Shown: positions 8,927-53,365 of the stretch, in pieces | Layout: every line of letters begins with the position of its first letter | Numbering within the stretch: position 1 is the stretch's first letter | Assembly: GCA_965203175.1 (NCBI GenBank) | Contig: OZ241867.1 | Coordinates: forward strand, 4,608,001-4,672,000 | Direction: 5' to 3' | Length of the DNA: 64,000 nt | Origin: Candidatus Latescibacterota bacterium | GTDB lineage: Bacteria; Latescibacterota; UBA2968; UBA8231 | Translations under genes and position numbers: made by a program | The notes under the pieces: generated by a model | Databases searched by the model: none | What the model was told of the DNA's origin: nothing | The model's input: the letters and a program-made list of their open reading frames with translations, nothing else

Positions 8927-8963
8927 AAACGTACAGGCGGGGTAAGATTTTCACTTGTACTGC

Positions 8964-8991
8964 TTGACATCCACTCTAGGTCGCCTATATT
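8964..8991 (+). promoter_or_regulatory. sigma70-type promoter for the lipoprotein-LysM operon
   Basis: TTGACA-16-TATATT. Confidence 0.55.
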
Positions 8992-9059
8992 TGTGCCAAT
9001 ATCCCGTATATTAATTAAGATCACTGTTTGATCCTTAAGCTAGGTGGAGGAACTACTTA

Positions 9060-9344
9060 ATGAGCTGTCTTTCCACTTTGTCCACTTTGAGATACTTAGG
9101 CGTTGCCCTAGCGGTAGTCGCCCTGTCTCTCGTCACTAGCTGCTCGCGTGTTCCTTCACAAGAGGACATGGAATACCTAGAACAACGGCGCCAAGCTACT
9201 CTGGCTGCCGAAGCAAAAGTAACCGAGCTACAGGCCAAAAAAGCACAGCTCGAGCGAGACCTCGCCGAGCGGCAAGCCACCAAAAAAGCATTAGAAGCCA
9301 AACTAGCCGCTACCAAGAACAACCTCGCCAACCAAGCTAAATGA
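9060..9344 (+). CDS. Small coiled-coil lipoprotein
   Basis: Hydrophobic signal ending in LVTS-C; Ala/Lys/Glu/Gln heptad pattern; GGAGG RBS; C-terminal Lys. Confidence 0.8.
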   Translation: MSCLSTLSTLRYLGVALAVVALSLVTSCSRVPSQEDMEYLEQRRQATLAAEAKVTELQAKKAQLERDLAERQATKKALEAKLAATKNNLANQAK

Positions 9345-9358
9345 GAAAGGGTTCGACC

Positions 9359-10189
9359 ATGAAGAAGTTGTCCGTTGGTGGGTTGGCTTTAGCACTGCTA
9401 GTCCTAGCGAGCGAAAACATTTCTGCTCAAGAGCAGCAGATGACCTGTGAGGAATACATGGCTCTGGGGCAGGAGATCGTCAACCGCGAGGCCGCGGCCA
9501 ACGCCCAGACCGAAGAACTAATCGCCCAGATTGAATCACTTAATATGCAGATTGCCCAGCTCGACCGGGCCAACGCCGACCTCAATGCCCAGATTCTCGC
9601 AGCAATCGGCCACTCCGAATCTGAAGTCATGGCCTTTGGGCGCGAACTCGACGCTATTATCGCCCAGCTCGAAGGTCTGATGGCACTGGCTCCAGAAGTA
9701 CTCATTATGCGTCGCGGTGAAGTCACCGCCATCGAATCCCGAGCTGCCGAGCTCAGGCAGAGCAACATAGCCGCTCTGCCCGAAATGATGGACAAGCTAG
9801 CTACCATTGACCAAATGCTCGCCGATCTCAAAGCGCGCATAGCCCAACCCGTAGTCATTGACTACAAGGTTGAGCGGGGCGACAACTTGTGGAACATCGC
9901 CAAAAAAGACCGACTCTACGACGATCCCTATATGTGGCCCCGCATCTACCGGGAGAACAAGGGTCAAATCAAAGACCCGGATTTAATCTACCCCAACCAA
10001 GTCTTGGGCGTGCCGTTCGGGGTAGCTGAAAATCAGTACTTGGTCACTCGAGGAGACTTCCTTTTCAAAATTGCCGCCGAGCTTTACAACAATGCTGGCA
10101 AATGGCATAAAATCTACGAGGCCAACAAGCAGCAAATCGTCGCGCCAGATTTAATTTTTCCTGCTCAAGTCCTCGACATCCCTCAGTAA
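9359..10189 (+). CDS. Exported coiled-coil protein with two LysM peptidoglycan-binding domains
   Basis: Signal peptide; YKVERGDNLWNIA...IYPNQVL and YLVTRGDFLFKIA...IFPAQVLDIP. Confidence 0.9.
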   Translation: MKKLSVGGLALALLVLASENISAQEQQMTCEEYMALGQEIVNREAAANAQTEELIAQIESLNMQIAQLDRANADLNAQILAAIGHSESEVMAFGRELDAIIAQLEGLMALAPEVLIMRRGEVTAIESRAAELRQSNIAALPEMMDKLATIDQMLADLKARIAQPVVIDYKVERGDNLWNIAKKDRLYDDPYMWPRIYRENKGQIKDPDLIYPNQVLGVPFGVAENQYLVTRGDFLFKIAAELYNNAGKWHKIYEANKQQIVAPDLIFPAQVLDIPQ

Positions 10190-10225
10190 TTAAAAATACT
10201 TGATTTAAATAAATTTTAAGACTTA

Positions 10226-10280
10226 AAGGGGTTTGATTCCTTCCCGAGGGCTTTAAGGGAGGGATTTCAAACCCCTTTTT
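10226..10280 (+). terminator. Probable rho-independent terminator
   Basis: AAAGGGGTTTGA...TCAAACCCCTTTTT long inverted repeat with U-tract. Confidence 0.75.
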
Positions 10281-10305
10281 GTATTTTTGTCCAACTACCA
10301 GGGCT

Positions 10306-11262
10306 ATGAAGGACATTTCCATCGCCGGCATCGATTGCCGCTCCCTCTTCGGGCGCAACGATCAGCACCTAGCACATCTCGAAAAGAGATACGGCATCCG
10401 CCTAGTTGCCCGCGGTGACAAGCTTACTCTTAAGGGATCCGCTGCTTCGGTGCGCGAGGCTGATGGCTTTCTCAGTCACCTCATAAAACGCATGCGCCAC
10501 GGTCCGCCCCTCAAAGCAGCCGAGCTAGAGGACTTGATCCACTCTAGTCCGGCCCTGCCTAAGGGCGACCACGGCACCCTTTTGAATCCCATAGCCCACA
10601 CCTATAAGACAGCCATCTGTGCCCGCACCGAGGGCCAAGCAAAATATCTCGCAGCCATCGACAACAACGACGTGGTCTTTGGCATTGGCCCAGCGGGTAC
10701 CGGCAAGACTTACCTAGCAGTAGCCATGGCTGTTGCCGCACTGCGGCAAAAGCAAATATCTCGTATCCTGCTCGCCCGGCCCGCCGTCGAAGCCGGTGAG
10801 AAGCTCGGTTTCTTGCCCGGCTCTTTTGAGGACAAGGTTGACCCTTATTTGCGCCCGCTCTACGATGCGCTACAGGATCTCATGGAACCCGAGCGGCTGC
10901 GGCGGATGCAGGACATGAAAATTGTCGAAGTCGTACCCTTGGCTTACATGCGTGGTCGCACCCTTAACGATTCGTTTATTATTCTCGACGAAGCCCAAAA
11001 TACTACACCGCAGCAGATGAAGATGTTTCTCACCCGGCTGGGTAGTCACTCAAAGGCCGTAGTTACTGGCGATATTACCCAGACCGATCTCAGCGATGAC
11101 CAGCCTTCGGGCTTGATCGTCGCGCCCAAGATTCTGACCGGGATCGCCGGCTTGGCCTTTGTTCGGCTCAACGAACGGGATGTGGTGCGCAACCCGCTCG
11201 TGCAGAAGATCATCAAAGCCTATGACAGCTATGGGGAAGCCCACGACTCGGCCGATTCATGA
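10306..11262 (+). CDS. phoH: PhoH-like ATPase (YbeZ)
   Basis: GPAGTGKT, RPAVEAGEKLGFLPG, YMRGRTL, DEAQN. Confidence 0.95.
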   Translation: MKDISIAGIDCRSLFGRNDQHLAHLEKRYGIRLVARGDKLTLKGSAASVREADGFLSHLIKRMRHGPPLKAAELEDLIHSSPALPKGDHGTLLNPIAHTYKTAICARTEGQAKYLAAIDNNDVVFGIGPAGTGKTYLAVAMAVAALRQKQISRILLARPAVEAGEKLGFLPGSFEDKVDPYLRPLYDALQDLMEPERLRRMQDMKIVEVVPLAYMRGRTLNDSFIILDEAQNTTPQQMKMFLTRLGSHSKAVVTGDITQTDLSDDQPSGLIVAPKILTGIAGLAFVRLNERDVVRNPLVQKIIKAYDSYGEAHDSADS

Positions 11263-13499
11263 ACGCGCTTAACTTCAAGTGGGTTGGTTTCAAACGCCGT
11301 AGCAATCAGCCCAAACCTTGGCACCCGCATAGTTTGAGGGTGTTCCATATCGCTTTGGCAGGCCTAGTCATCGGCCTGCTCACTTACCTATCGCCCTACC
11401 AGCGTCCCTACAATGTCACCCAGCTACGCGTCGGTAGTGTGGCCCAAGAGCGCATCGAAGCTCCTTTTCTCTTTAACGTGCCCAAGAGCGAGGCCGAATT
11501 GGAGCACGAACGCCAAGCAGCGACTGCCGAGATACCCACCATCTTGCACCGCGGTCCCTTAATTCAAGAGCGACAGCTAGCTCAGCTAGACTCGGTCTTT
11601 GCGGTGATGATCCCAAGAATCCGGGTCCAGATGGCCGACTCGCTCAAGCAACGCGAACTCCAACGTGAACTCCCCCAAGTTATCGGTTCGCTCTCGCTCG
11701 ATGCCCTTTCGACTCTCATCGACGTCCTCTCCACAGCCAGCGAGCCCTATGTGCACGACTTCCAAGCCATCTGTCGGCAGATTTTGGCCAATTACTATAC
11801 CGCGGGCATCATTGCCTCTAAACAACCGATTCTCCTAAGTCCCTCGACCCAAGTCCGCCTCGGAGACCGGGAACAACATATAGAAACTCTCTATAGCGAA
11901 GAAAAGCTCAAACAAGGCGAATTGATCTCGCGCATCCAAACTTATCATACGATCGCTGACCGCGACGCTGTCCAAGCCGTACACGAACTCCTAAGCATCT
12001 TTGTAGTCCCCAACCTGACCATTGACGAGCCGGAGACCACTCGCCTCAGAAACGCGGCACGGCGCGGCGTGGCCAGCATTAAGCGGATTTATGCCCAAGA
12101 CGACCTCATTGTCGACAAGCATGCCACCGTCACAGAAGAGCACGTCGACGCACTCGACGCACTGGCCGCCCAAATTGCCCAAGAACAAGCCCAGCATCCG
12201 ATCAAGCGCCTGATCCAAGTGGCTGCGGCCGCGACAATTTCCGGGCTTCTGATCTTCGTCTTCGGCTACTTCCTCGCCACGCACGAACGCGCTGTTTTTG
12301 ACCAGCCCGGCCAGCTCGTCCTATTAGCCATCTTGATCGTTGCCATAGCCGCCGCGGCCTCCTATATCAAAACGCATGACCTTCCCCCCTACTGGGTGCC
12401 AATTCCCCTCGCCGCTATGCTAGCGACGATACTATTGACGCCGCAAATTGGCTTGGTACTCTCGTTTGTGCTCGCGCTCTTTGTCGGCAACCTCTTTGCC
12501 AACTTCTACGTGGCCATAACCTGTGCCCTAACAGCGGCTATAGCCGTCTATGCGGTGCGGCACGTGCGCCACCGCAATCAGTTCTATCGCCCCATGATCT
12601 TCCTGCCGATCTCTTACGCGTTGCTCATCGCGGCGGCGGATCTGTTGCGCTTCTTCCCGGTCGAACAAATATACGCTCATATCCTACCCGGCATCGTCAT
12701 CGGCGCGGCTGCCCCCATTCTCACTATCGGCCTGTTACCGATCTTTGAAAGCCTTTTTCATATTACCACGGACATCACCCTGCTGGAGTTGTCAGATCCG
12801 AACCGGACCTTGCTCCGCCAATTGGCCATCCGGGCACCGGGGACCTATACCCACAGCCTGATTATGGCCAACCTCTCCGAGAGCGCCGCCGAGTCCATCA
12901 CCGCTAACCCTCTTTTGGCCCGCGTCGGCTGCTATTACCACGATATCGGCAAGGTGAGCAAGCCTGAGTACTTCAGCGAAAATCAGGGATTGCAAGGCGG
13001 ACGCAATCCCCACGATCATCTGATGCCCTACCTGAGTATGCTCATTATCGCCTCGCATGTCCGCGAGGGGCTCGAATTGGCCGAGGAACACGGCCTCCCC
13101 CAATCCATCTGCGACCTAATCTCCCAGCACCACGGTACCACCGTCATCGAGTACTTTTACGAGCGTGCCGTAGAATTGGGTGACCGGAGCGTGCGCGAGG
13201 AAGATTTCAGGTACAACGGTCCCAAGCCCCAGACTAAAGAGGCCGGAATCCTGATGTTGGCCGACTCAGTCGAAGCGGCAGCCCGCACCCTCGCCGAGCG
13301 CACGCCCAGCCGGATGCGCCAGTTAGTACACAAAATTATCCAGCAGAAATTCACCGCTGGCGAACTCGACGAGTGTGCTCTGACCCTACGGGATTTGCTC
13401 AAAATAGAGGACAGCTTCATTCGCGTGCTGATGGGCGTCCTACACAGCCGGATGGAATATCCTTGGCAGAAGGCCAATCGCAAATGGAGTACCGTATAG
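11259..13499 (+). CDS. 7TM-HD (HDIG) phosphohydrolase, PgpH-like
   Basis: Extracytoplasmic domain, TM block, APGTYTHS, YYHDIGK, HHGT, LADSVEAA. Confidence 0.9.
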   Translation: MNALNFKWVGFKRRSNQPKPWHPHSLRVFHIALAGLVIGLLTYLSPYQRPYNVTQLRVGSVAQERIEAPFLFNVPKSEAELEHERQAATAEIPTILHRGPLIQERQLAQLDSVFAVMIPRIRVQMADSLKQRELQRELPQVIGSLSLDALSTLIDVLSTASEPYVHDFQAICRQILANYYTAGIIASKQPILLSPSTQVRLGDREQHIETLYSEEKLKQGELISRIQTYHTIADRDAVQAVHELLSIFVVPNLTIDEPETTRLRNAARRGVASIKRIYAQDDLIVDKHATVTEEHVDALDALAAQIAQEQAQHPIKRLIQVAAAATISGLLIFVFGYFLATHERAVFDQPGQLVLLAILIVAIAAAASYIKTHDLPPYWVPIPLAAMLATILLTPQIGLVLSFVLALFVGNLFANFYVAITCALTAAIAVYAVRHVRHRNQFYRPMIFLPISYALLIAAADLLRFFPVEQIYAHILPGIVIGAAAPILTIGLLPIFESLFHITTDITLLELSDPNRTLLRQLAIRAPGTYTHSLIMANLSESAAESITANPLLARVGCYYHDIGKVSKPEYFSENQGLQGGRNPHDHLMPYLSMLIIASHVREGLELAEEHGLPQSICDLISQHHGTTVIEYFYERAVELGDRSVREEDFRYNGPKPQTKEAGILMLADSVEAAARTLAERTPSRMRQLVHKIIQQKFTAGELDECALTLRDLLKIEDSFIRVLMGVLHSRMEYPWQKANRKWSTV

Positions 13500-13936
13500 A
13501 TAGGCCCCTTCACATAGTCCAAGACGCGGACCTCGCCCCTCTGCATACAGACGCGCTCGTAGCCCTGCACCAGATCGCTGCGCAGGTCGCCTGCGTCCAC
13601 GCGCTTCCAGACGCGGTACAGCTAGTCCTCATCGACGACGACTACATGAGCGACCTCAATACCATCTATCGCAGCAAGGAGGGCACGACTGATGTCTTGT
13701 CTTTCGACTTAGGTACCATACCTGGTCAGCACAGCAGTGGCGAAGTATACATTTCTCTACCCCAAGCGCAGCGGCAAGCCGCCGCGCTCTGCGTCCCTCC
13801 CTTAGTGGAGCTAGCCCGACTGTTGGTACATGGCCTACTTCACCTAGCGGGCTGGGTACACGACACGCCCGAACAACTAGCTGCGATGGAACGCGAAACA
13901 GACCGCTTCCTTACTACAGCCTCCCCCTCTCTCTAA
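13484..13936 (+). CDS. ybeY: rRNA maturation RNase YbeY
   Basis: TTDVLSF and HGLLHLAGWVH; start reassigned to ATG 13484. Confidence 0.93.
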   Translation: MEYRIDRPLHIVQDADLAPLHTDALVALHQIAAQVACVHALPDAVQLVLIDDDYMSDLNTIYRSKEGTTDVLSFDLGTIPGQHSSGEVYISLPQAQRQAAALCVPPLVELARLLVHGLLHLAGWVHDTPEQLAAMERETDRFLTTASPSL

Positions 13937-13973
13937 GCAGCCTTGGCCGGCCGCCTTACCGAAAGGAGCCTTT

Positions 13974-15305
13974 TTGGAACCCCCACAAGTTGTTGACTTA
14001 TCCTCCGTTGCGTACGCCACGCTAGGCGGTGCAATCAGCCTCGTCTGGCTCTTTTTGGTAGCTAGCTACGAGACTACCTTCGCTATTCTCTCCAAATCCG
14101 TGCTGGAGAAAATGGCTGAAAGTGGCGTATCGCATGCGCGCGCCATGCTCCGCATCTACGAGCCGCGTCTGCGTCTGCGTCTGATGACTCGCCTCGGCGA
14201 GGCCATCGGCGTCACTGTCCTCGCCCTCTCCCTATTCTTTCTCGTGGAGACCCTCCTAGTACCGTACGCCCTTTCGAGCTATATCTCTGTAGCAGTAGCC
14301 TTATTCGGGGCGCTAGGACTTTTCATGATCGTGGCTACGCCCCGCCGCATTCGCTTTGACGAGGAGGGCGACGAAGCACGCATACCTGTCGTCGCCTTGG
14401 CCTATGCGCCGGTACACGCGCTGCTCCTACCTTTGACCAACCTCCTCGAACTCCTCAGCAGTTTTGACTACAGCGACGAGGACTTTCGCGCTGAAAAGGA
14501 AGAGGAACTGCGTAGCATCGTCGAGGCAGAAGGCGAGTCTGGCGTACTAGAGGAAAGCGAGCGCGAGATGATTGAGAGCGTCTTTGGCTTCCACGACCGC
14601 ATCGTCCGCGAAGTCATGGTCCCTCGCGTCGACATGGTCGCCATCGATCAATCGGCCTCTCTGCAAGATTTGCTCGATCTCATTAGAGACAAGGGCCACT
14701 CGCGCCTGCCCATCTACCGGGAAAGTCTCGACCACATCCAAGGACTGGTGTACGCCAAAGATCTGCTGCAGATCTTGGTGTCCCGGCCCGAAGTCGATCT
14801 GGCGACGCCCATAGACCAACTACTGACCAGTCAACAAGAGGGCGACTTGCGTTTTACCCACGAGCCCTATTACATCCCTGAGACCAAGAAAATCGACGTC
14901 CTGCTCAACGACCTGAGAGCCAACAGAATTCGCCTCGCCATCGTCCTCGACGAATACGGCGGTACAGCTGGCTTAGTCACCACCGAGGATCTCGTCGAGG
15001 AAATCGTTGGGGAGATCCAAGACGAGTACGACGAGGAAGAGGAGTTGCACCACTGGCAGGTCCCCGGCGAGGTACTCATCGCCAATGCCCGTATCGACAT
15101 AGACGATCTCAACGAGTTGCTTTCCACTGATCTGCCGAGAGCGGGCTTTGAAACTCTTGGAGGATTTATCTATGACCACTTGGGGAGCATCCCCGCGGAG
15201 GGCTTAGTCTTCACGGTCAATCATCTAGAGCTCGACATCCTCAAGGTGGAGGGCCAGCGCATCGCCCAAGTCAAACTCCGGCGCTTGACACCCGTTGCCG
15301 ATTGA
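13974..15305 (+). CDS. Hemolysin/CorC-HlyC family (CNNM-CBS) protein
   Basis: N-terminal TMs, VREVMVPR, HSRLPIY, DEYGGTAGLVTTEDLVEEIVGEIQDEYD. Confidence 0.92.
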   Translation: MEPPQVVDLSSVAYATLGGAISLVWLFLVASYETTFAILSKSVLEKMAESGVSHARAMLRIYEPRLRLRLMTRLGEAIGVTVLALSLFFLVETLLVPYALSSYISVAVALFGALGLFMIVATPRRIRFDEEGDEARIPVVALAYAPVHALLLPLTNLLELLSSFDYSDEDFRAEKEEELRSIVEAEGESGVLEESEREMIESVFGFHDRIVREVMVPRVDMVAIDQSASLQDLLDLIRDKGHSRLPIYRESLDHIQGLVYAKDLLQILVSRPEVDLATPIDQLLTSQQEGDLRFTHEPYYIPETKKIDVLLNDLRANRIRLAIVLDEYGGTAGLVTTEDLVEEIVGEIQDEYDEEEELHHWQVPGEVLIANARIDIDDLNELLSTDLPRAGFETLGGFIYDHLGSIPAEGLVFTVNHLELDILKVEGQRIAQVKLRRLTPVAD

Positions 15306-45943: not shown

Positions 45944-47119
45944 CTAAATCCTGTCAAAAGGCACTGTACTCGCCCCCTGCGGCCGGGGTCCGGTGGGACG
46001 GATAGGCATGTTTTCGGGGGCCTGGTACTGCACGTCCAAATGCGGCGTCTCCAGCCGTATATGGCCTTGGTGACGCGAATCCATCAGCGCGTCCAGACCG
46101 CCGCTTACCAGCAGGGTGCGCTCCACCGGGTACTGCGGTTGGCCCGTGAGAAACATCTCCTGGATATTGAGGCCCAAGTAGCTAAAGTGGGGATAGGGCG
46201 GCCCGTGCAAGCGCAGGCCCGTGGCCTGTACCTCGCCGTTGACGCGGGCCGCGTACGACCATTCCTCGACGTACCCGTTCAAGTGCAGCAGGGTGGCTTT
46301 GAAACCATCCCTGTATTCCAGCAGAAAGGCCGCTGGATTTTCGCAGGCTTTCTCCATGGGGTCGGCCGAGGTTTTGCCCACAGCTGCGGCCGCGTCAGCC
46401 AACTCGCGCGACCACAGGCCGTCGGCACCGGCCTGCCACACGGCCTCGCCCTCCAAACACTGCACGGCCACCAGACCTGTCTCACCGCCCCGACGCCGCT
46501 CGACCATGGCCTGCAGGCCCTCAAAGCCGTGATAGCCGTAGGACTCAATGCCGCCAAAGCTGAGCATGAGGGCGTCTTCGATGGGGACATCCCGCTCGTG
46601 TTCGAGCCAAGGGTCACGCCAGCCCAAGGGCACTGAAGAGCCGGCCATAAAGGGGACGTTAAGTTCCACTGCCCGATCGTACATCCACTTGGCGTCACTC
46701 CAGTTGTAGGACAGGTGCTTGTCGCTGAACACCGGCACCGAGCGGCTGGAGGTGGCCATAACGCCGCAGATCTGTTCAAAGAAAAAGCGCCGGGGATACA
46801 GGTGCTGGCCCTTCTCGTTGAAGGCGTACGCGCCGTGTTCGCCAATGGAGATTACGCCGTCGACGGCCAATTTGTCGCCACCCAGACTCAGAGCCGCGGG
46901 GATACTCTGGTACACGGGTATATCGTATTCTTTGGATACTTGTAGGCCGATGTCATTGTCGGGTATCTGGTCCAGGTACATGGAGGCGATATCCACCTGC
47001 GGATCCTGCATGCCCTCGTCCGTGGGAAAACCCTTGATGAACTTGCCGACAATGACATCGGCGTGCGCCGGGACGCGGTATTCGGTAATAATGGCGGCGA
47101 TCTTTTTGCGCTGGGTCAT
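45944..47119 (-). CDS. Hypothetical oxidoreductase-like protein
   Basis: IAAIITEY..HADVI, IGEHG, DKHL, MAGSS, YPVERTLL. Confidence 0.8.
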   Translation of the reverse strand: MTQRKKIAAIITEYRVPAHADVIVGKFIKGFPTDEGMQDPQVDIASMYLDQIPDNDIGLQVSKEYDIPVYQSIPAALSLGGDKLAVDGVISIGEHGAYAFNEKGQHLYPRRFFFEQICGVMATSSRSVPVFSDKHLSYNWSDAKWMYDRAVELNVPFMAGSSVPLGWRDPWLEHERDVPIEDALMLSFGGIESYGYHGFEGLQAMVERRRGGETGLVAVQCLEGEAVWQAGADGLWSRELADAAAAVGKTSADPMEKACENPAAFLLEYRDGFKATLLHLNGYVEEWSYAARVNGEVQATGLRLHGPPYPHFSYLGLNIQEMFLTGQPQYPVERTLLVSGGLDALMDSRHQGHIRLETPHLDVQYQAPENMPIRPTGPRPQGASTVPFDRI

Positions 47120-47298
47120 GGTTGCCTCTCTATGGTTGGATTTGGTTGGATCAAGATAATATCCCGACGGCAGTCCGCAATCGCATTGGGAACTCTGGCC
47201 GCCTCTCTGAAAAACCGGCCGCATTTACTTCGTTGGGTTATTTAGTCTATGATATAGATGTTAAAACCACATAAAATTAGGCCACAGGAGGTTCTTCA

Positions 47299-48297
47299 AT
47301 GACCAGTTCACGCCCCATCAAATGGGGCATCCTCAGCACCGCCAGAATCGGCGTCACCGCCTTCATACCCTCGGCCCGCGCCACACCCGATGCCCAAGTC
47401 CATGCCATAGCCAGCCGCAGCCAAACCACCGCCGACGCCTTTGCCCGCGACCACGATATTCCCGTGGCGCTGGGCAGTTACCAAGCCCTGCTCGACCACC
47501 CGGACATCGACGCCATCTATATCTCGCTGCCCAACTCGCTGCACGCCAAATGGACCATCAAAGCCGCCGAGGCGGGCAAACACATCTTTTGCGAAAAACC
47601 CCTCGCCGTCACCGCAGCCGAAGGCCGGCAAATGGTCGAGGCTTGCCGCAAGGCCGACGTATTGCTCTTTGAGGCTTTTGTCTTCATGCACCATCCCCAA
47701 AGCCGCCGCCTCAAGGAAATCATCGCAGCCGGCGAGATCGGCACCCTGCGCCACATTAACGCCGGCATGACCTTCGTCGTCAACGACCCCAGCAACATCC
47801 GCCTGATTAAAGCGTTGGGCGGCGGCAGCATTTACGACGGCGGCGTGTACCCCATCACCTTTTCGCGCTTTATCGCCGGCACCGACCCGATTAGCGTCCA
47901 GGCGCACATGCGCTTAGACGCGCAAGCCGGGGTGGACGTGGCCACCTCGCTCATCCTCGAATACCTCGACGGCCTCACCGCGACTTTGTACTGTAGTTTC
48001 GAGGGTCGCGGCGGGTCTCATGCTCTCATCACTGGAGATCAGGGACGATTGGTTGTGCCCTCTCCGTACCATCCCGGTGCAGAGAGCAGCTTTGAAGTGG
48101 TCATTGGCTCCGATGAGAGCCGCAGCGAGACTTTCCAGACCGGCACACCACCTTTCCAGCCGGCCATCGACTTTTTCCAGCAATGTATGCGCGGAGAAGA
48201 AACCCCCGCCTATATGGCAGACCACGCCGACGGCACGCTCAGAGTGGTCGAGGCGGCTTTTGAATCGGCCCGCAGTGGGCGGCGGGTGGAGCTGTAG
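47299..48297 (+). CDS. Gfo/Idh/MocA oxidoreductase
   Basis: WGILSTARI, CEKP, GGGSIYDGGVY. Confidence 0.92.
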   Translation: MTSSRPIKWGILSTARIGVTAFIPSARATPDAQVHAIASRSQTTADAFARDHDIPVALGSYQALLDHPDIDAIYISLPNSLHAKWTIKAAEAGKHIFCEKPLAVTAAEGRQMVEACRKADVLLFEAFVFMHHPQSRRLKEIIAAGEIGTLRHINAGMTFVVNDPSNIRLIKALGGGSIYDGGVYPITFSRFIAGTDPISVQAHMRLDAQAGVDVATSLILEYLDGLTATLYCSFEGRGGSHALITGDQGRLVVPSPYHPGAESSFEVVIGSDESRSETFQTGTPPFQPAIDFFQQCMRGEETPAYMADHADGTLRVVEAAFESARSGRRVEL

Positions 48298-48339
48298 GAT
48301 TACTTTCGCAGACCAGCACCAGCCCCGTTACAGATTGAG

Positions 48340-48606
48340 TTACACACGCTGTTTGGCGGGCTGTGCAGGTGTGCCCATCAACATGCCTTCTGCACTGATG
48401 TCTTCATCGATATCCGGCCAGTGAACGCCCTGCCCATCGCCGATAAATTCATAGTTTTCACGCTGAGCGGGGGTTGCCTCGGAAAGCCGCCAGGACCAAA
48501 CGAGTGGCACACTGATTGTTCGACCATCGAACAAGTCAGCGATGATCAAGTCCTCAGTAATCCTGATGGATTTGATGCGAGGTTCCATATTATTCACAGT
48601 GTTCAC
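48340..48606 (-). CDS. DUF2442 protein (putative TA component)
   Basis: DGRTISVPLVWSWRL, GVHWPDIDEDIS. Confidence 0.88.
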   Translation of the reverse strand: MNTVNNMEPRIKSIRITEDLIIADLFDGRTISVPLVWSWRLSEATPAQRENYEFIGDGQGVHWPDIDEDISAEGMLMGTPAQPAKQRV

Positions 48607-48826
48607 GCCAAGCCTCCAAAATTATCACGTAGTTCGATTGGATCAACCGCCGAATTTCATTCAGCTCGTGGGGAGAGAACCCGTAATTTTTGCACAATGC
48701 GATGGGTTCAAGCCAGTATTTGCATGTTCTTTTTTCTCTTCTGACATGCACATGCCGAGGTTCCTGACAGTCAAAGCTGAAAAAGAAGAATCGATACGGC
48801 CCTTGGATGCCGCTAACCCTTGGCAT
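48590..48826 (-). CDS. DUF4160 protein (putative TA component)
   Basis: YRFFFFS..EPRHVHV...KYWL...AW. Confidence 0.88.
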   Translation of the reverse strand: MPRVSGIQGPYRFFFFSFDCQEPRHVHVRREKRTCKYWLEPIALCKNYGFSPHELNEIRRLIQSNYVIILEAWREHCE

Positions 48827-48846
48827 TGTAACCCTCTCAAAATAGG

Positions 48847-48891
48847 GTAGTCTTCATAGGTAAACTTGACTATGGGATTGGGGATAGCCAT
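48847..48891 (-). pseudogene. N-terminal remnant of a Uma2-type gene
   Basis: GGAGAGG RBS then MAIPNPIVKFTYEDY, after which resemblance ends. Confidence 0.5.
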
Positions 48892-48967
48892 GGTCGCCGT
48901 CCTCTCCCTGGTGATGCGTTTCGCCAAGCCCTCCGGGACATTCAGCTAGCAGTCGAAAACCGATTGA

Positions 48968-49138
48968 CTAACCTTTTCGCGTAGCCGGATTTGCCGTATC
49001 TGTTCCGTCTTTGACCGGCGTCAGGCACATCTCGTCGAACATCCTCATGGTCATTTTGTTCAGGACGTCCGCTTCGTGGAGCCCAAGGGCTGTCTCGTGT
49101 ATAGCCGCCAACATCTCGCTTTTGTACTGTTCACTCAT
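48968..49138 (-). pseudogene. Truncated HigA-like antitoxin lacking its HTH
   Basis: MSEQYKSEMLAAIHETALGLHEADVLNKMTMRMFDEMCLTPV, then an unrelated tail and stop. Confidence 0.65.
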
Positions 49139-49251
49139 CGTTTGGTACTTCAAGTAATGAATGCGCTGAGCATTGTCAACACGATAGCGGAATTCTCGTG
49201 CCTGCGGAGGCGGTCCATGACCTCGGCAGGGCACCTGCACCCAAGGCTACC

Positions 49252-49304
49252 TTGACATTGGGGCAGACATACTATACTTTTGTTCAGGTGTAATTTTGGT
49301 TACA
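49252..49304 (+). promoter_or_regulatory. Promoter and palindromic operator for the DUF5131-TcmP gene
   Basis: TTGACA(49252)-17-TACTTT(49275); TGTAA-N6-TTACA at 49289-49304. Confidence 0.5.
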
Positions 49305-49316
49305 TAAAGGTCTCTC

Positions 49317-50993
49317 ATGTCTCGCAAAAGCACTATCGAGTGGACTAACAGCACTTGGAACCCGGTCACTGGCTGCACGAAGGTTAGCGCCGGTTGCGAC
49401 CATTGCTATGCCGAGCGCCTTTCCGAGCGTTTCCGTGGCGTCGAGGGACACCCTTTCGAGTCGGGCTTCGACCTGACCCTTCGCCCCAAACGCCTCGAAC
49501 AACCCATGCAGTGGCGGCGTCCACAGCTCATCTTCGTCAATTCGATGAGCGATCTCTTCCACAAGGACATTCCCACCGACTATATAGAGCGCGTATTCGA
49601 CACGATGGAGCGCGCCGATTGGCACATCTATCAGGTGCTTACCAAGCGCAGTTCGCTGATGCGCCGTTTCGTCCAAGAGCGCTACCGGGGCCAAGCGGCT
49701 CCCCCGCATATCTGGCTCGGCGTGTCCGTCGAAAATCACGCGGCCTTGACGCGCCTCCGGCACTTGCAACAGACCAACGCCTCCGTGCGCTTCGTTTCCT
49801 TTGAGCCGTTGCTCGGTCCAATAGGCGCGGTGGATTTGGAGGGTATTCATTGGGTAATCGCCGGGGGCGAGAGTGGGCCGGGAGCGCGTCCAGTGCGAGC
49901 AGAATGGGTGCGGGCCTTGCGCGACCAGTGTCAGGCTCAGCGCGTCGCCTTCTTCTTTAAGCAATGGGGCGGTCGCACACCGAAAGCGGGTGGGAATACG
50001 CTCGATGGACGGCAATGGCTGGAATATCCAGAAGTGGAGACAGACCAGCAGCTTGAGACACCATTACAAGCTGCTGGTGCTCCAGCCGAGAATGTAAGAA
50101 ACGAGCATCAGGATGTTGGCCCTTGGGCACAGGAGAAACTGGAGTGCCTCCGCAAATATCTCCATGCCTACACAACCATTCTCAGTAAGAGAAAATTCAA
50201 AGGCTATTTCTACATTGACGCCTTTGCGGGACCAGGAACTCTTAAAATCCGCCGACAAAAAACGGACGATCGTGCTCAAAAATTACTTATTGAAGTCTCC
50301 GATTATGTTGCAAAGGATACCGGGGAAGCCGAGTACATAAGCGGATCTCCGCGTGTCGCTCTTGATTTGGAAAGACCTTTTACAGACTACGTATTCATTG
50401 AAATTGATGGAAAGAAGCTAAATCAACTCGAAGAGTTGAAGAACGACTATGAGAGTGAAAACCGACGGATTCACCTGCGCGAGCAAGACTGCAACAACTA
50501 CCTGCGCAAATTAATAAAGGAGACTCAGTGGACTCAGTGGCGGGGTGTCGTCTTTTTAGATCCTTTTGGTATGCAGGTACCTTGGGATACCATTGTCGAA
50601 ATAGGCAAAACCAAGGCCATTGAGATTTTTATCAATTTTCCCGTGGGCATGGCCATCCAGCGTCTGCTCAAGAGAAGTGGGAAATTTACGCCTAAAGAAC
50701 GCAGAAAGATCGACCAATACTTCGGAACCGATGAATGGTATGATCTACTCTACGATTACCGCGAAGATCTGTTCGGCGAAGATAACATCACTAAGGTGCA
50801 AAACTCCGGCGACCTTCTCGTGAAGTGGTATCGCAATCGGCTCAAGGAGGTTTTCGGCTACGTTTCCACTGCACGAGAGATTCAAAACACCCGTGGTCGT
50901 CCGCTATACTATCTCATTTTTGCCGGACCAAATGAAACGGGCGCAAAGATAGCGAATGAAGTGTTGAGACAGGGAGCGAGACGTATCCGGTGA
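49317..50993 (+). CDS. Fusion of DUF5131 (Gp37/Gp68 three-Cys) and three-Cys-motif partner TcmP-like methyltransferase domain
   Basis: IEWT..TWNPVTGCTKVSAGCDHCYAE, FVNSMSDLFH, GGESG, FFKQWGG; then GPWAQEKL, YIDAFAGPG, FLDPFG, LYYLIFA. Confidence 0.88.
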   Translation: MSRKSTIEWTNSTWNPVTGCTKVSAGCDHCYAERLSERFRGVEGHPFESGFDLTLRPKRLEQPMQWRRPQLIFVNSMSDLFHKDIPTDYIERVFDTMERADWHIYQVLTKRSSLMRRFVQERYRGQAAPPHIWLGVSVENHAALTRLRHLQQTNASVRFVSFEPLLGPIGAVDLEGIHWVIAGGESGPGARPVRAEWVRALRDQCQAQRVAFFFKQWGGRTPKAGGNTLDGRQWLEYPEVETDQQLETPLQAAGAPAENVRNEHQDVGPWAQEKLECLRKYLHAYTTILSKRKFKGYFYIDAFAGPGTLKIRRQKTDDRAQKLLIEVSDYVAKDTGEAEYISGSPRVALDLERPFTDYVFIEIDGKKLNQLEELKNDYESENRRIHLREQDCNNYLRKLIKETQWTQWRGVVFLDPFGMQVPWDTIVEIGKTKAIEIFINFPVGMAIQRLLKRSGKFTPKERRKIDQYFGTDEWYDLLYDYREDLFGEDNITKVQNSGDLLVKWYRNRLKEVFGYVSTAREIQNTRGRPLYYLIFAGPNETGAKIANEVLRQGARRIR

Positions 50994-51066
50994 GGTATAT
51001 CTATCGCTCAGCTTATTTGCTTAAACGCCAATACCGCGACACTGGCTCACGCTACAGCCGGCTCCC

Positions 51067-53214
51067 TCACCCCAACACGTACACCGGACTCGACCAAGCC
51101 ATCTGCCCGTCGCACTGAATAGCCTTGACGAAGTAAGCCACCTGCCCCTCCCCCGGCGGCTGATCCACAGTCCCCAAAGTCAATTCCAGCGCTTCCACCC
51201 GCTCGGGATAGCGCTGCACCACCAACTGCATGTCCAAGCCGCCGTAGTCGAAGCGCAGCGGCTTGTGACCCAGTCTCGCCAGATCAATTTCCGTCGTCCC
51301 CACCGCCGACTCGAACGCCAAGCTGCCCATCCGCCCATCGTCCAGCACCAACTCAATGCCGTCGCAATCTCCCGTGGTCTGCGATTGAAAAGTCACGGCC
51401 TGCGGCTCGGTCACGGTGATCCCGTCGGCCGCGGAGTCAAAGCTAACCGTAGTCGCCTCCAAGATGGTCGCCTGAGTGGTGCGGATAACCCCAGACCAAT
51501 CCACCCGCCGCCCGCGCCCGCGCATCCGCGAGCCAGACCACATCAAGCGCAACCTGTTGGAATGCCCCAGATCTCGGAATTCAGGCGGCTGCACTTCGGC
51601 GAGCAATTCCCGATCGCGATACACTTGCAGCGCCTCCAGTGGTGCCGCCCCCACAACCCGAGCGCGAATATCCACCGAGTCCACATTTTCTACCATCGCC
51701 CCCATGAGCGCACCAGCTATCTGTACATCTAGAAGTATGCGCGCTCCAGTCGTACCATAACATCGCCGACTGCACAGAGCCTCCCACACGCCCGCGCGCG
51801 ACAACTCGCCAGCCAACACACAGGTCAAGCCACCGGCAATACCAAACTCACCAGCCCCCGGCCCTTCGGCCCCAGGCCGTCCCTTGTGGCCGTCGCTGTT
51901 GCACATGACCCCGACCATGTGGCCGCAGTCCAGCGCGTCGAACAGCATCCACTCGAACACGCCCCAGCTTGAGACGACCTCCACCAGATTGTGTGCCTCG
52001 GGGTCGAAATACGCCTTGACGTCGGCCCAGCGCCCGCCCACATGCGAGCCGATAATCACTTGGTCGCGCGGCACCAAGCGAGCGAGTCGGGCGAAAAACA
52101 CATCGGCCGGATGCGCGGGCGACACCTCGTCCTCGGGCACGTGCGGGATCTGCCAGTGGCTGTTGCGCACAATGGGCAGCCCCTCGGCAAAGTAAAAGAC
52201 GTTGCGGTCCCCGCCGGCTGGAGAATTAGCCGACCACTCGTAGCCGGGAAAGACGACGAACTCGCCGTCCCGGTGAAAAGCCTGCACCGTCTCGTTGAGC
52301 CGCTGCCAGTCTTGGTCGTCAACCTGGAAATCATTGCCCTGATGCGAGGCGAAATCCACCCTCGCCCAGTCGCGCGCAAAAGTGAAATACTCCTCCTCCG
52401 TGCCTATGCCGACAGTAGCGTCGGACTGAGCGTGCAAATCCCCCCAGTAGCGGTGCCACTGAGGCGCGGTCTCAGAAACGGCAACCGGATTGCTGTGACA
52501 GCGCAAGCCACCCGCCGCCGCAATCAGCCGTCCACTACCCGGAGCGCAAAAGGACACCCTGTACCCCTCGACTACGACCTCTCCTTCCCCTTCCCATTCC
52601 AGTTCAACCGGCCCTGCCACCGCCGTCGGATTGCCCCACATATCCTGCCCTTTGACAAAAACCTCGACCGTTTCCCCCACCACTGCTTGGCTCGGCGCTA
52701 TGCACACCAATTCCACGGCCTCACCAGCGACAACGGGAAACTTGGGCGGATCCGCTACGGCCCGAGCTACCGCAGCATTGGTCGGATCGACAAAAACGCG
52801 GAATTCGTGGGCCGACTCGACAAAGGTCTGCACCCGAATCCCTGGCGAACCACCGCTGCGCTCGCCCAAGACCACGGTCACGGTATCGCCGGGCGCGAGG
52901 GACCCGTCGTACACATCAATCACCACGCACCAGATCATCCACGGCCGCTCGTGACCCTTGGGGGCAAAGCGCGGTGCCAGCTTGGCCGCCCCGTTGGTCT
53001 GCACCGTGCAATAAGCTGGCGCGGCCGGATCGCTGAACTGGGCCGGCTGCATATCGCAGGCGAGACGCTGGGCGATCTTAATGGTGCCGCCCTCGTCAAT
53101 GCCGTAGCTCCCCACAGTCAGGGTCAAGGTCCATTGCTGATAGCTGCCGGCCACTACCGGCGCGCAAGGTTCCAGCATCACCGTTCCCAGCCGTTCCCGC
53201 CATTGCTGTTTCAT
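51067..53214 (-). CDS. DUF3604-like PHP-type metal-dependent protein
   Basis: YWGDLHAQS, PGYEWS, NSDGH, YGTTG, AWSSP. Confidence 0.82.
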   Translation of the reverse strand: MKQQWRERLGTVMLEPCAPVVAGSYQQWTLTLTVGSYGIDEGGTIKIAQRLACDMQPAQFSDPAAPAYCTVQTNGAAKLAPRFAPKGHERPWMIWCVVIDVYDGSLAPGDTVTVVLGERSGGSPGIRVQTFVESAHEFRVFVDPTNAAVARAVADPPKFPVVAGEAVELVCIAPSQAVVGETVEVFVKGQDMWGNPTAVAGPVELEWEGEGEVVVEGYRVSFCAPGSGRLIAAAGGLRCHSNPVAVSETAPQWHRYWGDLHAQSDATVGIGTEEEYFTFARDWARVDFASHQGNDFQVDDQDWQRLNETVQAFHRDGEFVVFPGYEWSANSPAGGDRNVFYFAEGLPIVRNSHWQIPHVPEDEVSPAHPADVFFARLARLVPRDQVIIGSHVGGRWADVKAYFDPEAHNLVEVVSSWGVFEWMLFDALDCGHMVGVMCNSDGHKGRPGAEGPGAGEFGIAGGLTCVLAGELSRAGVWEALCSRRCYGTTGARILLDVQIAGALMGAMVENVDSVDIRARVVGAAPLEALQVYRDRELLAEVQPPEFRDLGHSNRLRLMWSGSRMRGRGRRVDWSGVIRTTQATILEATTVSFDSAADGITVTEPQAVTFQSQTTGDCDGIELVLDDGRMGSLAFESAVGTTEIDLARLGHKPLRFDYGGLDMQLVVQRYPERVEALELTLGTVDQPPGEGQVAYFVKAIQCDGQMAWSSPVYVLG

Positions 53215-53365
53215 TCTAAACTCCTGTCTCCGTTGAATCATCCTCGTAAAAATCTCCGCACGGCCCGCCCGCCTTTCTCCACAGCCTCTTTTTTCCCTAA
53301 CTTAACCGGCATTATAAAAAAATCTGCGCGAAATCGAAATTCGCCCCCGAGAAAGGATTATCAGC

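Follow-up and report, generated by a model that had tools for sequence, protein, structure and literature searches.

A single-chain DUF5131-TcmP protein with a LexA-type operator-like element in a mosaic island of a Latescibacterota genome: a candidate DNA-damage-induced enzyme

Several described systems frame the gene that we report here. Spore photoproduct lyase, a radical S-adenosylmethionine (SAM) enzyme, repairs the thymine dimer directly in DNA, and the plasmid- or island-borne operons of the umuDC/rulAB type are mobile, LexA-controlled accessory genes that act on damaged DNA. The methyltransferase RlmJ has, in the structural and biochemical account of PMC3814359, a helical subdomain that interrupts the fold after the first strands, a motif IV reading 164-DPPY-167, two essential residues (D164 and K18), and an active site that resembles those of DNA N6-methyladenine (m6A) methyltransferases more than those of the RNA N6,N6-dimethyladenine (m6,6A) enzymes. 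Finally, genes for DUF5131 and TcmP proteins form a pair already listed as a candidate defence system; according to the description in bioRxiv 10.1101/2024.01.29.577857, the PDC systems were nominated by their embedding in BREX, DISARM, type I restriction-modification and Hma systems. The pair is common (3,266 TcmP representatives at 50% identity in an exhaustive domain search at E 1e-3 or better, and DUF5131 in 180 phage records) and has no published function in the literature that we searched, in agreement with an earlier annotation made from the DNA letters alone (the first-pass annotation). The pair, its listing as candidate defence and the existence of fused proteins in databases were known. 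Here, we describe a gene in which both partners form one polypeptide, found in a 64,000-nucleotide (nt) stretch of a Candidatus Latescibacterota genome (assembly GCA_965203175.1, contig OZ241867.1, positions 4,608,001 to 4,672,000, forward strand), hereafter called the window. Its features are given in Table 1.

The open reading frame (ORF) is genuine, and it unites in one chain the DUF5131/TcmP module that is widespread as two genes. It is free of stop codons over its 558 amino acids (aa), as the first-pass annotation had it, and each half is recognized by its family profile: aa 4-238 align with all 243 positions of Pfam PF07505 (DUF5131, Gp37/Gp68) at 326.8 bits, where the cut-off is 28.9 (E 1.1e-97), and aa 269-552 align with positions 1-261 of the 263 in NCBIfam TIGR04474 (TcmP) at 209.3 bits, where the cut-off is 53 (E 9.5e-62). 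In PADLOC, PDC-M41B falls on aa 3-243 (E 7.9e-103) and PDC-M41A on aa 263-548 (E 2.8e-82), so that both component hidden Markov models (HMMs) of PDC-M41 are present and adjacent, but in one gene instead of two. The PHROGs match is phrog_2045, of unknown function. The host genome, one contig of 6.58 Mb, holds a single copy of DUF5131 and a single copy of TcmP, both within this ORF. Two genes might have been joined by an assembly error or a frameshift, or the ORF might be a pseudogene in decay. Such an artefact would suit the composition break that falls exactly at the linker, the predominance of split relatives and the single contig of long-read type, yet contigs built from the public short reads of two studies pass through the linker without a gap. 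One of them (X1, record 7) spans 49940-51109 with no differences, and another from a different study (X3, record 16) spans 49700-51109 with 33 substitutions and no gaps. The same full-length architecture is present in 110 of the 120 homologues listed (at least 97% query coverage, 545-585 aa, 51-96% identity), and all residues of catalytic type are invariant. We give the artefact virtually no credence.

The motifs previously read from the sequence (Cx6Cx2C, DAFAGPG and DPFG) are present as described, and their key residues belong to the set that is invariant across an alignment of 66 fused homologues: C20, C27, C30, C205, D301, A302, F303, G305, D415, P416 and G418. The cysteines C20, C27 and C30 are also invariant in 34 homologues that include fused and split forms. 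In the TcmP half of the 66 fused proteins, K274, in the N-terminal helix, is nearly invariant and E362, after strand 2, is conserved in at least 90%. The linker (aa 239-266) has no methionine and accordingly no in-frame ATG, as had been noted, and it is the least conserved part of the protein: its identity falls to 8-60% in homologues with domains that are 50-98% identical, and only G254 and P256 are nearly invariant within it.

How common is the fusion? Our counts for species genomes refer to the best 80 loci. Five of these have the fused single ORF (L003, L004, L005, L006 and L016). In 23, a DUF5131 ORF of ~250 aa is followed on the same strand by a PDC-M41A-type ORF of ~300 aa, and in 33 it is followed by a PDC-M30A-type ORF of about 380-400 aa. 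The tested downstream ORF matches neither partner class in 15 loci, two of which (L036 and L046) are probably frameshifted or miscalled, since tblastn matches both halves there, and 4 loci have no downstream ORF of at least 100 aa within 600 nt. The expectation that the two domains usually occupy separate adjoining genes was therefore right for at least 56 of the 80 loci, which have a split partner directly downstream. The gene order of the split pairs, DUF5131 and then the partner, equals the domain order of the fusion. Among viral contigs, none of the 21 loci matching both halves is fused. Among metagenome contigs there is one in 37, L238 (552 aa, 36% identity), which on sequence grounds is a second, independent fusion because its C-terminal half is of the M30A type. 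In the best 150 of the 3,266 TcmP representatives, only P0088 (558 aa) is a DUF5131 fusion; three more exceed the stand-alone length of ~300 aa without a DUF5131 domain, and a candidate for a fusion in reverse order, P0150 (552 aa), was rejected for lack of that domain. The fused form is one well-populated clade in a mostly split family, with records labelled Latescibacterota, Ectothiorhodospiraceae and Pseudomonadales, some of them named "three-Cys-motif partner protein" by JGI. The documentation of this clade and of a second fusion is new. Two independent natural fusions are strong Rosetta-stone evidence, and we therefore suggest that DUF5131 and TcmP work as one unit.

The fold of the DUF5131 half points to a radical SAM enzyme. 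In the full-length model (mean predicted local distance difference test score, pLDDT, 75; predicted template modelling score, pTM, 0.49) both domain cores are confident, and pLDDT falls below 50 in aa 241-267, the linker, and in an insert at aa 304-342; the model of the DUF5131 domain by itself reaches pLDDT 83 and pTM 0.84. When the latter was searched against 48,161 representative chains of the PDB, the best match was spore photoproduct lyase (4fhc_A; Z 12.2, root-mean-square deviation 2.9 Å, 192 residues), 1.3 Z units above the next, and the full-length model retrieved the same match (Z 12.8). Ranks 1-8 are all radical SAM enzymes (Z 9.5-12.2), with viperin (10.9), SuiB (10.6), SkfB, lipoyl synthase and others following 4fhc_A, and Cfr is also among the radical SAM matches (Z 8.1). 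The model has the partial TIM-barrel fold of solved radical SAM enzymes. At the sequence level the half is not a member of the SplB group (COG1533), so that the likeness to spore photoproduct lyase is one of fold only, and a profile of 34 DUF5131 sequences retrieved no PDB chain at E 10 or better. The megacluster table of RadicalSAM.org (PMC9477430) has DUF5131 as megacluster 5-2, next to spore photoproduct lyase as 5-3. The literature searched contained no paper tying spore photoproduct lyase to phage defence. On the strength of the model, we regard the N-terminal half as a radical-SAM-type enzyme that would bind an Fe-S cluster and cleave SAM.

The TcmP half resembles RlmJ. Foldseek puts RlmJ structures at ranks 1-5 (E 2.7e-5 to 4.9e-5), the Escherichia coli enzyme first, and the VIA comparison of aa 265-558 gives Z 14.3 for 2oo3 and Z 13.8 for RlmJ, at 17% identity. 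A profile of 25 TcmP sequences has a weak match to 2oo3 (E 1.4), which places GSP on GSP and "FLDP" on "FIDP"; the protein atlas offers clusters named RlmJ/RsmD (score 0.84), a lead only. The fused protein has no match to PF04378, the RlmJ family, at E 0.01 or better, and one homologue, P0108, has a precomputed one. The first-pass annotation had likened DPFG to the DPPY motif of amino-methyltransferases, and by profile alignment and fold it does sit at the DPPY position of RlmJ. The RlmJ motif DPP(Y/F) as such is absent, Asp-Pro alone being shared. The poorly modelled insert, which follows motif I, may correspond to the helical subdomain of RlmJ, and K274 may be the counterpart of K18, both being equivalences that we propose. 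The TIGR04474 profile also scores below its cut-off in the E. coli control genome, a signal that presumably comes from the RlmJ gene (yhiR) and that would then be another hint of kinship.

These matches raise the alternative that the protein modifies rRNA or tRNA as RlmJ does, with the radical SAM half acting like RlmN or Cfr. The best folds for the C-terminal half belong to an enzyme of 23S rRNA (m6A2030), Trm1 matches the same half at Z 12.5, Cfr is found among the matches of the N-terminal half, and the atlas clusters bear the names RlmJ and RsmD. (Trm1 may itself have a DPFG motif, for which a literature search gave no record.) Yet sister genomes have lost the gene, an accessory status that sets it apart from housekeeping enzymes of RNA, and a LexA-type operator precedes it. 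In fold, its N-terminal half scores higher with spore photoproduct lyase (Z 12.2) than with Cfr (Z 8.1), and a C-terminal winged helix-turn-helix (wHTH) domain is present in the longer partner class (PDC-M30A type, ~380 aa). An RNA substrate seems to us decidedly improbable. The first-pass annotation proposed that the substrate is plausibly a DNA base, and a nucleic acid substrate, probably DNA, is reasonable from the SplB-like N-terminal half, the RlmJ-type active site and the wHTH domain of the longer partner class.

The region upstream of the gene suggests a link to the SOS response. A LexA-type operator-like element overlaps the -10-like hexamer there. A consensus promoter scan reported none upstream of the fused gene, having missed the pair of hexamers because of the 15-nt spacer; TTGACA or a near match also occurs in L006, L007, L008 and L080. 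Across the 200 nt upstream of the start in the window, L006, L003, L007, L008 and L080, little is common except ACTAYACTTWTGTTCAG(G/T). In the host genome, the region upstream of recA1 reads TTGACA...ACTATTTTTTTGTTCAGGTG, which agrees with the window element in 18 of 20 positions, and lexA has two overlapping related sites. We built a weight matrix from six DUF5131 sites only and scanned both strands of the host genome (13.16 million positions), where 13 sites score at least 18, about 21 at least 17 and 48 at least 15. The fused gene itself ranks first (28.6), followed by a site 64 nt upstream of an ORF for a Pol-beta-type nucleotidyltransferase, after which uvrA follows at 22 nt (rank 2, 25.5). 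Further down come recA1, at -64 (rank 5, 22.0), the perfect palindrome CTGAAC-TTTT-GTTCAG (rank 9, 21.2), lexA (rank 14, 17.8) and a second uvrA-like gene of 1,887 aa, at -64 (rank about 20, 17.0). Since a matrix made from DUF5131 sites recovers these, the underlying motif is of the GAAC-N4-GTTC type. Of the two recA genes in the host genome (6257294-6258373 and 258346-259531 of G000:C1), only the first has an operator-like site. This within-genome demonstration is new: as read from the DNA, the operator of the fused gene shares its type with the sites that precede recA, lexA and uvrA, and the organism's LexA would be expected to bind it. As a clue to function this operator is the strongest, and the first-pass annotation does not mention it.

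The matrix scan also gave sites of interest in their own right. Top sites other than that of the fused gene are at 499620, 3804675, 5355768, 1811106 and 1387365 of G000:C1. One of them is the perfect palindrome, CTGAACTTTTGTTCAG, which lies upstream of a short ORF and a DUF5916 protein. Together, the top sites make a first sketch of a Latescibacterota SOS regulon.

The association with LexA boxes extends to the wider family. Three types of LexA box are described in the reports PMC3091678 and PMC4234289. We collected 240 loci, 239 of them with an N-terminal match, and used the 227 with at least 150 nt upstream to count exact GTTC-N7-GTTC, GAAC-N7-GAAC, GAAC-N4-GTTC and CTGT-N8-ACAG boxes within 150 nt of the start. 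An exact classical box is present in 78 of the 227 loci, which are mutually related, so that the counts are not independent events; the types contribute 53, 10, 10 and 5, in the order just given. Random windows of the same loci had a mean of 4.3 of 227 (standard deviation 2.0, maximum 10, 200 replicates), and the upstream windows of other ORFs of at least 200 aa had a box in 30 of 1,866 cases, these control windows being GC-richer (0.62 against 0.52) and including spurious ORFs. The position is also constrained: 46 of the 78 sites are at -30 to -21. Boxes were found in all three collections (genomes 29/79, metagenomes 31/73, viral 18/75). The Latescibacterota sites are outside the 78 because they are not exact classical boxes. 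The independently fused L238 has GAACATGTGTTC at -27, and in L004 a lexA gene in the same orientation lies 297 nt upstream. This count of LexA boxes is, to judge from the literature searched, also new. It has some parallel in the SplB-type radical SAM genes (COG1533), given as SOS-regulated in several species in the regulon data of PMC8565304 and PMC3765255, and a table for Streptomyces venezuelae (PMC9380542) includes a LexA-bound "radical SAM protein". Candidate gamma-type boxes at L004 and L005 needed two mismatches and were rejected as evidence. In nine loci (L014, L065, L077, L086, L087, L097, L099, L144 and L223) a GAAC-N7-GAAC box stands at -132 to -134, much farther than the usual -27; its consensus is GAACMGAGATCGAACR, with a different spacer in L223, and it may belong to a divergent neighbour gene.

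The gene resides in a mosaic island, and its optional character, which fits the mobile module suspected in the first-pass annotation, is borne out by its absence or alteration in sister genomes. The flanks of the island are 91-94% identical in DNA to other Candidatus Latescibacterota records, on both sides in L007 and on the left only in L008 and L080, and the DUF5131 half is 88-95% identical to the same three. Homology to the window is lost inside the linker, at 50072 (L080), 50076 (L007) and 50097 (L008). In L007, the reading frame stays open beyond the break, through unrelated sequence (297 aa), and the next genes are a 449-aa ORF of no recognized family and a Phd/YefM antitoxin. In L080, DUF5131 is a pseudogene that ends at a stop codon following aa 216; a short remnant resembling the start of TcmP is left in another frame, and the syntenic site (8807-12269) holds a split AAA_15/AAA_21 ATPase, a DUF6527 protein and a ThiF-JAB fusion. 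Elsewhere among the Latescibacterota records, the gene after DUF5131 encodes a HEPN-TPR protein (L009), a DDE transposase (L011) or a Fic protein (L012). The toxin-antitoxin genes upstream differ as well (Gp49/HTH in L007, BrnT/BrnA in L080). This syntenic replacement of the TcmP half at the linker is a new observation. TcmP is found elsewhere in the genome in two of the five relatives' genomes searched (G001 and G004). L009 has a second, split pair of DUF5131 and a PDC-M30A-like partner at 12193-14212, 4 kb from its solo DUF5131, and in that partner DGFAGGG and LLDQTGF take the places of DAFAGPG and FLDPFG in the fused protein.

The two halves also have separate histories within the fused clade, in which the C-terminal half evolves faster throughout. 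In P0002, the N-terminal half is 94.2% and the C-terminal half 99.0% identical to the window protein; the values are 97.5% and 83.2% in P0004, and 97.9% and 78.0% in P0007. Because the halves have different nearest relatives, an exchange of halves between fused alleles, near the linker, is supported by the sequence comparisons. The second half was expected to be more AT-rich, and it is (GC 0.60 in the N-terminal half and 0.47 in the C-terminal half; GC at third codon positions, GC3, 0.70 and 0.51, with 0.73-0.75 in the adjoining core genes). GC3 is higher in the DUF5131 half of all six fused genes compared (window, L003, L004, L005, L006 and L016), with a gap of 0.01-0.23 irrespective of host GC, and the mean gap over 27 split pairs is only 0.028. 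A single recent chimera as the cause of the break is unsupported, because all five other fused loci show the same direction. The linker of the window gene contains a perfect inverted repeat at the synteny break. Its RNA fold has z -4.36, and none of 200 shuffles was as stable; the hairpin is non-significant in the five other fused loci and was rejected as a family feature. The breakpoints of L080, L007 and L008 are three different points no more than 25 nt from its 3' arm, as if the hairpin marked a recombination-prone joint. No convincing direct repeats were found at the island edges. A low-depth X1 contig (2.1 against ~17) connects 49198 with 51071 through 8 other nucleotides, so that the promoter and the gene are absent from it, and weakly suggests an empty-site variant in the same sample.

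We propose that the gene encodes a mobile, DNA-damage-induced enzyme acting on DNA, a proposal that we hold to be evenly balanced between right and wrong. It is the best supported reading because the double fusion, the repair-lyase-like N-terminal fold, the amino-methyltransferase-type site with its wHTH-bearing sister class and the SOS-type operator combine. In such a scheme, the fused gene would be optional cargo with its own promoter and would be silent until DNA damage triggers SOS, as is to be expected of a promoter overlapped by a LexA-type operator. A [4Fe-4S] cluster, bound by the three invariant cysteines, would cleave SAM to give the 5'-deoxyadenosyl radical. The RlmJ-like half would bind a flipped-out base and methylate an exocyclic nitrogen, which is probable because the SAM loop DAFAGPG, E362 and the Asp-Pro of DPFG are kept. 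One half could then recognize or methylate a base and the other act by radical chemistry on that nucleotide or one beside it, and the lesion would be reversed or modified further. The first-pass annotation had already supposed that the fusion joins a radical-SAM-like step to a methyl transfer on one substrate; the domain types agree with this by HMMs and folds, and the idea of two steps on one substrate is still conjecture. A bolder version, that DUF5131/TcmP is an unrecognized, horizontally mobile, SOS-induced system of DNA repair or lesion processing, in which a small radical SAM enzyme akin to spore photoproduct lyase and a base-flipping RlmJ-like SAM enzyme would together reverse or convert a lesion, working without light and outside spores and with the fusion as its natural single-chain form, is one that we put forward as speculative and, for now, rather doubtful.

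Several observations weigh against a damage-induced enzyme acting on DNA. SOS control is common for mobile-element genes unrelated to repair, and the neighbours in several loci are defence-type genes. The operator is a degenerate half-match, with the left arm CTATAC instead of CTGAAC, and part of its likeness to recA1 could reflect a shared promoter, because it overlaps the -10 hexamer. Other top matrix sites head genes that are not classical SOS genes (a Rieske protein, DUF433 and a PRA-PH family pyrophosphohydrolase), and the matrix scan found no operator site at recA2 or at the single Y-family polymerase gene. No convincing box stands upstream of L004 and L005, the fused genes from proteobacteria, and none was matched in L016; the relatedness of the loci and the nature of the control windows also temper the box count. 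As for the enzyme, the cysteine spacing is Cx6Cx2C and not the canonical radical SAM Cx3Cx2C, and spermidine synthases and other class I methyltransferases lie within 1 Z unit of the RlmJ match in the VIA comparison. RlmJ is itself an RNA enzyme that did not methylate single-stranded DNA in the assays recounted in PMC3814359. Lastly, the literature searched yielded no published function, experiment or SOS control for DUF5131/TcmP, and annotation tables at most.

The mobility, mosaicism and loss in sister genomes show an accessory cargo, and they fit damage-tolerance genes and an anti-phage gene equally well. The gene could be one of anti-phage defence, a one-protein PDC-M41 that modifies or damages invading DNA, or the cell's own nucleic acids in an abortive infection, with the LexA operator being merely the usual wiring of mobile-element genes. 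Both halves match the PDC-M41 components, and PADLOC nominated the PDC systems on the principle of "guilt by embedding", although the authors present them in their own words as candidates only (bioRxiv 10.1101/2024.01.29.577857). In L005 (3942-17677, Pseudomonadales), the fused gene is found within a cluster that runs DUF499 (HmaC-like), DUF3780, the fused gene, a DUF1156 methylase, a type IIG enzyme and a PLD-helicase. Other neighbours of defence type are an AbiLi-like ATPase, Fic and NYN (L003), HEPN (L009), Fic (L012), and the AAA_15/21 ATPase with ThiF-JAB (L080); yet the neighbours of fused genes are not conserved, and we found no third gene that accompanies them consistently. The presence/absence variation, the mosaic halves and the faster-evolving C-terminal half would also suit defence, as would the location of the pair in the lysogeny region of Gordonia phages and a table in PMC12445080 that has a Sinorhizobium meliloti TcmP gene alongside hna. 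On the other side, the protein has no nuclease or other effector domain, its N-terminal half folds closest to a repair enzyme, and a third of the loci have a LexA box, of several types, at a fixed distance. To our knowledge, such a box is not a known trait of defence systems. The operator points to a response to DNA damage at least as much as to anti-phage defence, and we consider defence, the strongest of the rival readings, a possible but rather unlikely role.

The same operator would suit the logic of a prophage, which brings in another alternative: an SOS-induced self-modification gene of a mobile element or prophage that puts an unusual mark on its DNA against restriction in the next host. 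Of 50,697 phage records, 180 have DUF5131, mostly those of Mycobacterium and Gordonia phages and none covering 80% of the fused query, as do 274 of the 275 matched viral-contig stretches. In the Gordonia phages Jablanski and BaxterFox it lies between the integrase and the immunity repressor, convergent with a TcmP-like gene; DNA methylases adjoin in some phages, and several viral pairs are a few hundred bases from the end of the viral stretch. Yet the island has no integrase and no phage genes were found among the ORFs examined at 45.9-54.3 kb of the window, the gene is at the same chromosomal site in sister genomes, and the viral loci with both halves lack fusions altogether. Self-modification appears improbable to us as the role of the window gene, and the damage-induced enzyme remains the reading that we prefer.

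The remaining parts of the island add context. The first-pass annotation placed the gene beside toxin-antitoxin debris. This does not hold for the DUF2442 and DUF4160 pair, which looks intact (Pfam E 1.7e-18 and 4.3e-17, both near full length) and has no PADLOC or NCBIfam match; it may hold for the 90-aa ORF next to it, which looks like a fragment. Within the latter, the DNA of 48986-49140 resembles L007 7571-7733 (79% identity), a segment with a 66-aa ORF. Outside the island, a 426-aa ORF (45944-47224, minus strand) is conserved in sister genomes and has no Pfam or PADLOC family. An RNA run gave two short contigs only, one of them over 50789-51059 (271 nt, the 3' end of the fused gene), which does not by itself show transcription.

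Table 1. Features of the fused gene, its promoter region and the surrounding island, in window coordinates
Feature	Position	Strand	Remarks
GFO/IDH/MocA oxidoreductase gene, left core flank	47299-48297		
Variable island, 2.8 kb	48298-51066		flanks conserved, interior differs; GC down to 0.42-0.55
DUF2442 (48340-48606) and DUF4160 (48590-48826), overlapping toxin-antitoxin-like pair	48340-48826	-	apparently intact
90-aa ORF without family, possibly an antitoxin-like gene fragment	48968-49240	-	family searches negative
-35-like hexamer TTGACA	49252-49257	+	read from sequence
LexA-type operator-like element ACTATACTTTTGTTCAGG	49271-49288	+	degenerate CTGAAC-N4-GTTCAG, overlaps -10 hexamer
-10-like hexamer TATACT	49273-49278	+	15-nt spacer behind TTGACA
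Fused DUF5131-TcmP gene	49317-50993	+	558 aa and stop, uninterrupted ORF
DUF5131 domain, radical-SAM-type partial barrel	49317-50030	+	aa 1-238; PF07505, fold search
Three-Cys motif C20-x6-C27-x2-C30, presumed [4Fe-4S] ligands	49374-49406	+	invariance in homologues
Inter-domain linker	50031-50114	+	aa 239-266, 28 aa
Perfect 12-bp inverted repeat with 11-nt loop, in linker	50044-50078	+	at synteny break
TcmP domain, class I SAM-methyltransferase fold	50115-50990	+	aa 267-558; TIGR04474, folds closest to RlmJ family
Motif I DAFAGPG, SAM-binding loop	50217-50237	+	aa 301-307; D301, A302, F303, G305 invariant
Motif IV DPFG, at the place of DPPY in RlmJ	50559-50570	+	aa 415-418; D415, P416, G418 invariant
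DUF3604 gene, right core flank	51067-53241	-	

These results may have consequences for the family as a whole. The link to LexA turns the vague notion of "modification or defence" into a testable claim, namely induction by damage and action on DNA, and the fusion offers a single gene to express, with clear targets for mutation (C20/C27/C30, D301 and D415). Should the protein prove to be a damage-induced DNA enzyme, spore photoproduct lyase would be joined by a second radical SAM route for the chemistry of DNA lesions. Should it serve defence, its chemistry would be of a type new among defence enzymes.

Compared with the known systems, the window gene is nearest to the TcmP/DUF5131 pair itself (TIGR04474 and PF07505; PDC-M41 and PDC-M30): its halves are clear members by HMM and have the same invariant motifs, and it differs from the split pair in being one polypeptide with a variable 28-aa linker. 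With the umuDC/rulAB-type operons it would share, by analogy, the kind of biology to which our data are best suited, the protein families and the chemistry being unrelated. For the C-terminal half, RlmJ (23S rRNA m6A2030; PDB 4blu, 6qe5 and 7p9o, with the homologue 2oo3) is the top fold match over the whole length, but RlmJ is a housekeeping RNA enzyme, whereas the TcmP-bearing gene is accessory and without a PF04378 match. For the N-terminal half, the best structural match is spore photoproduct lyase (SplB, 4fhc), from which DUF5131 differs by its low identity in superposition (10-12%), by being ~100 residues shorter, and by its constant tie to a partner of methyltransferase fold, which SplB does not have. 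Still, going by the regulon data in PMC8565304 and our own counts, SplB-like COG1533 radical SAM genes and DUF5131 genes are both found behind LexA operators.

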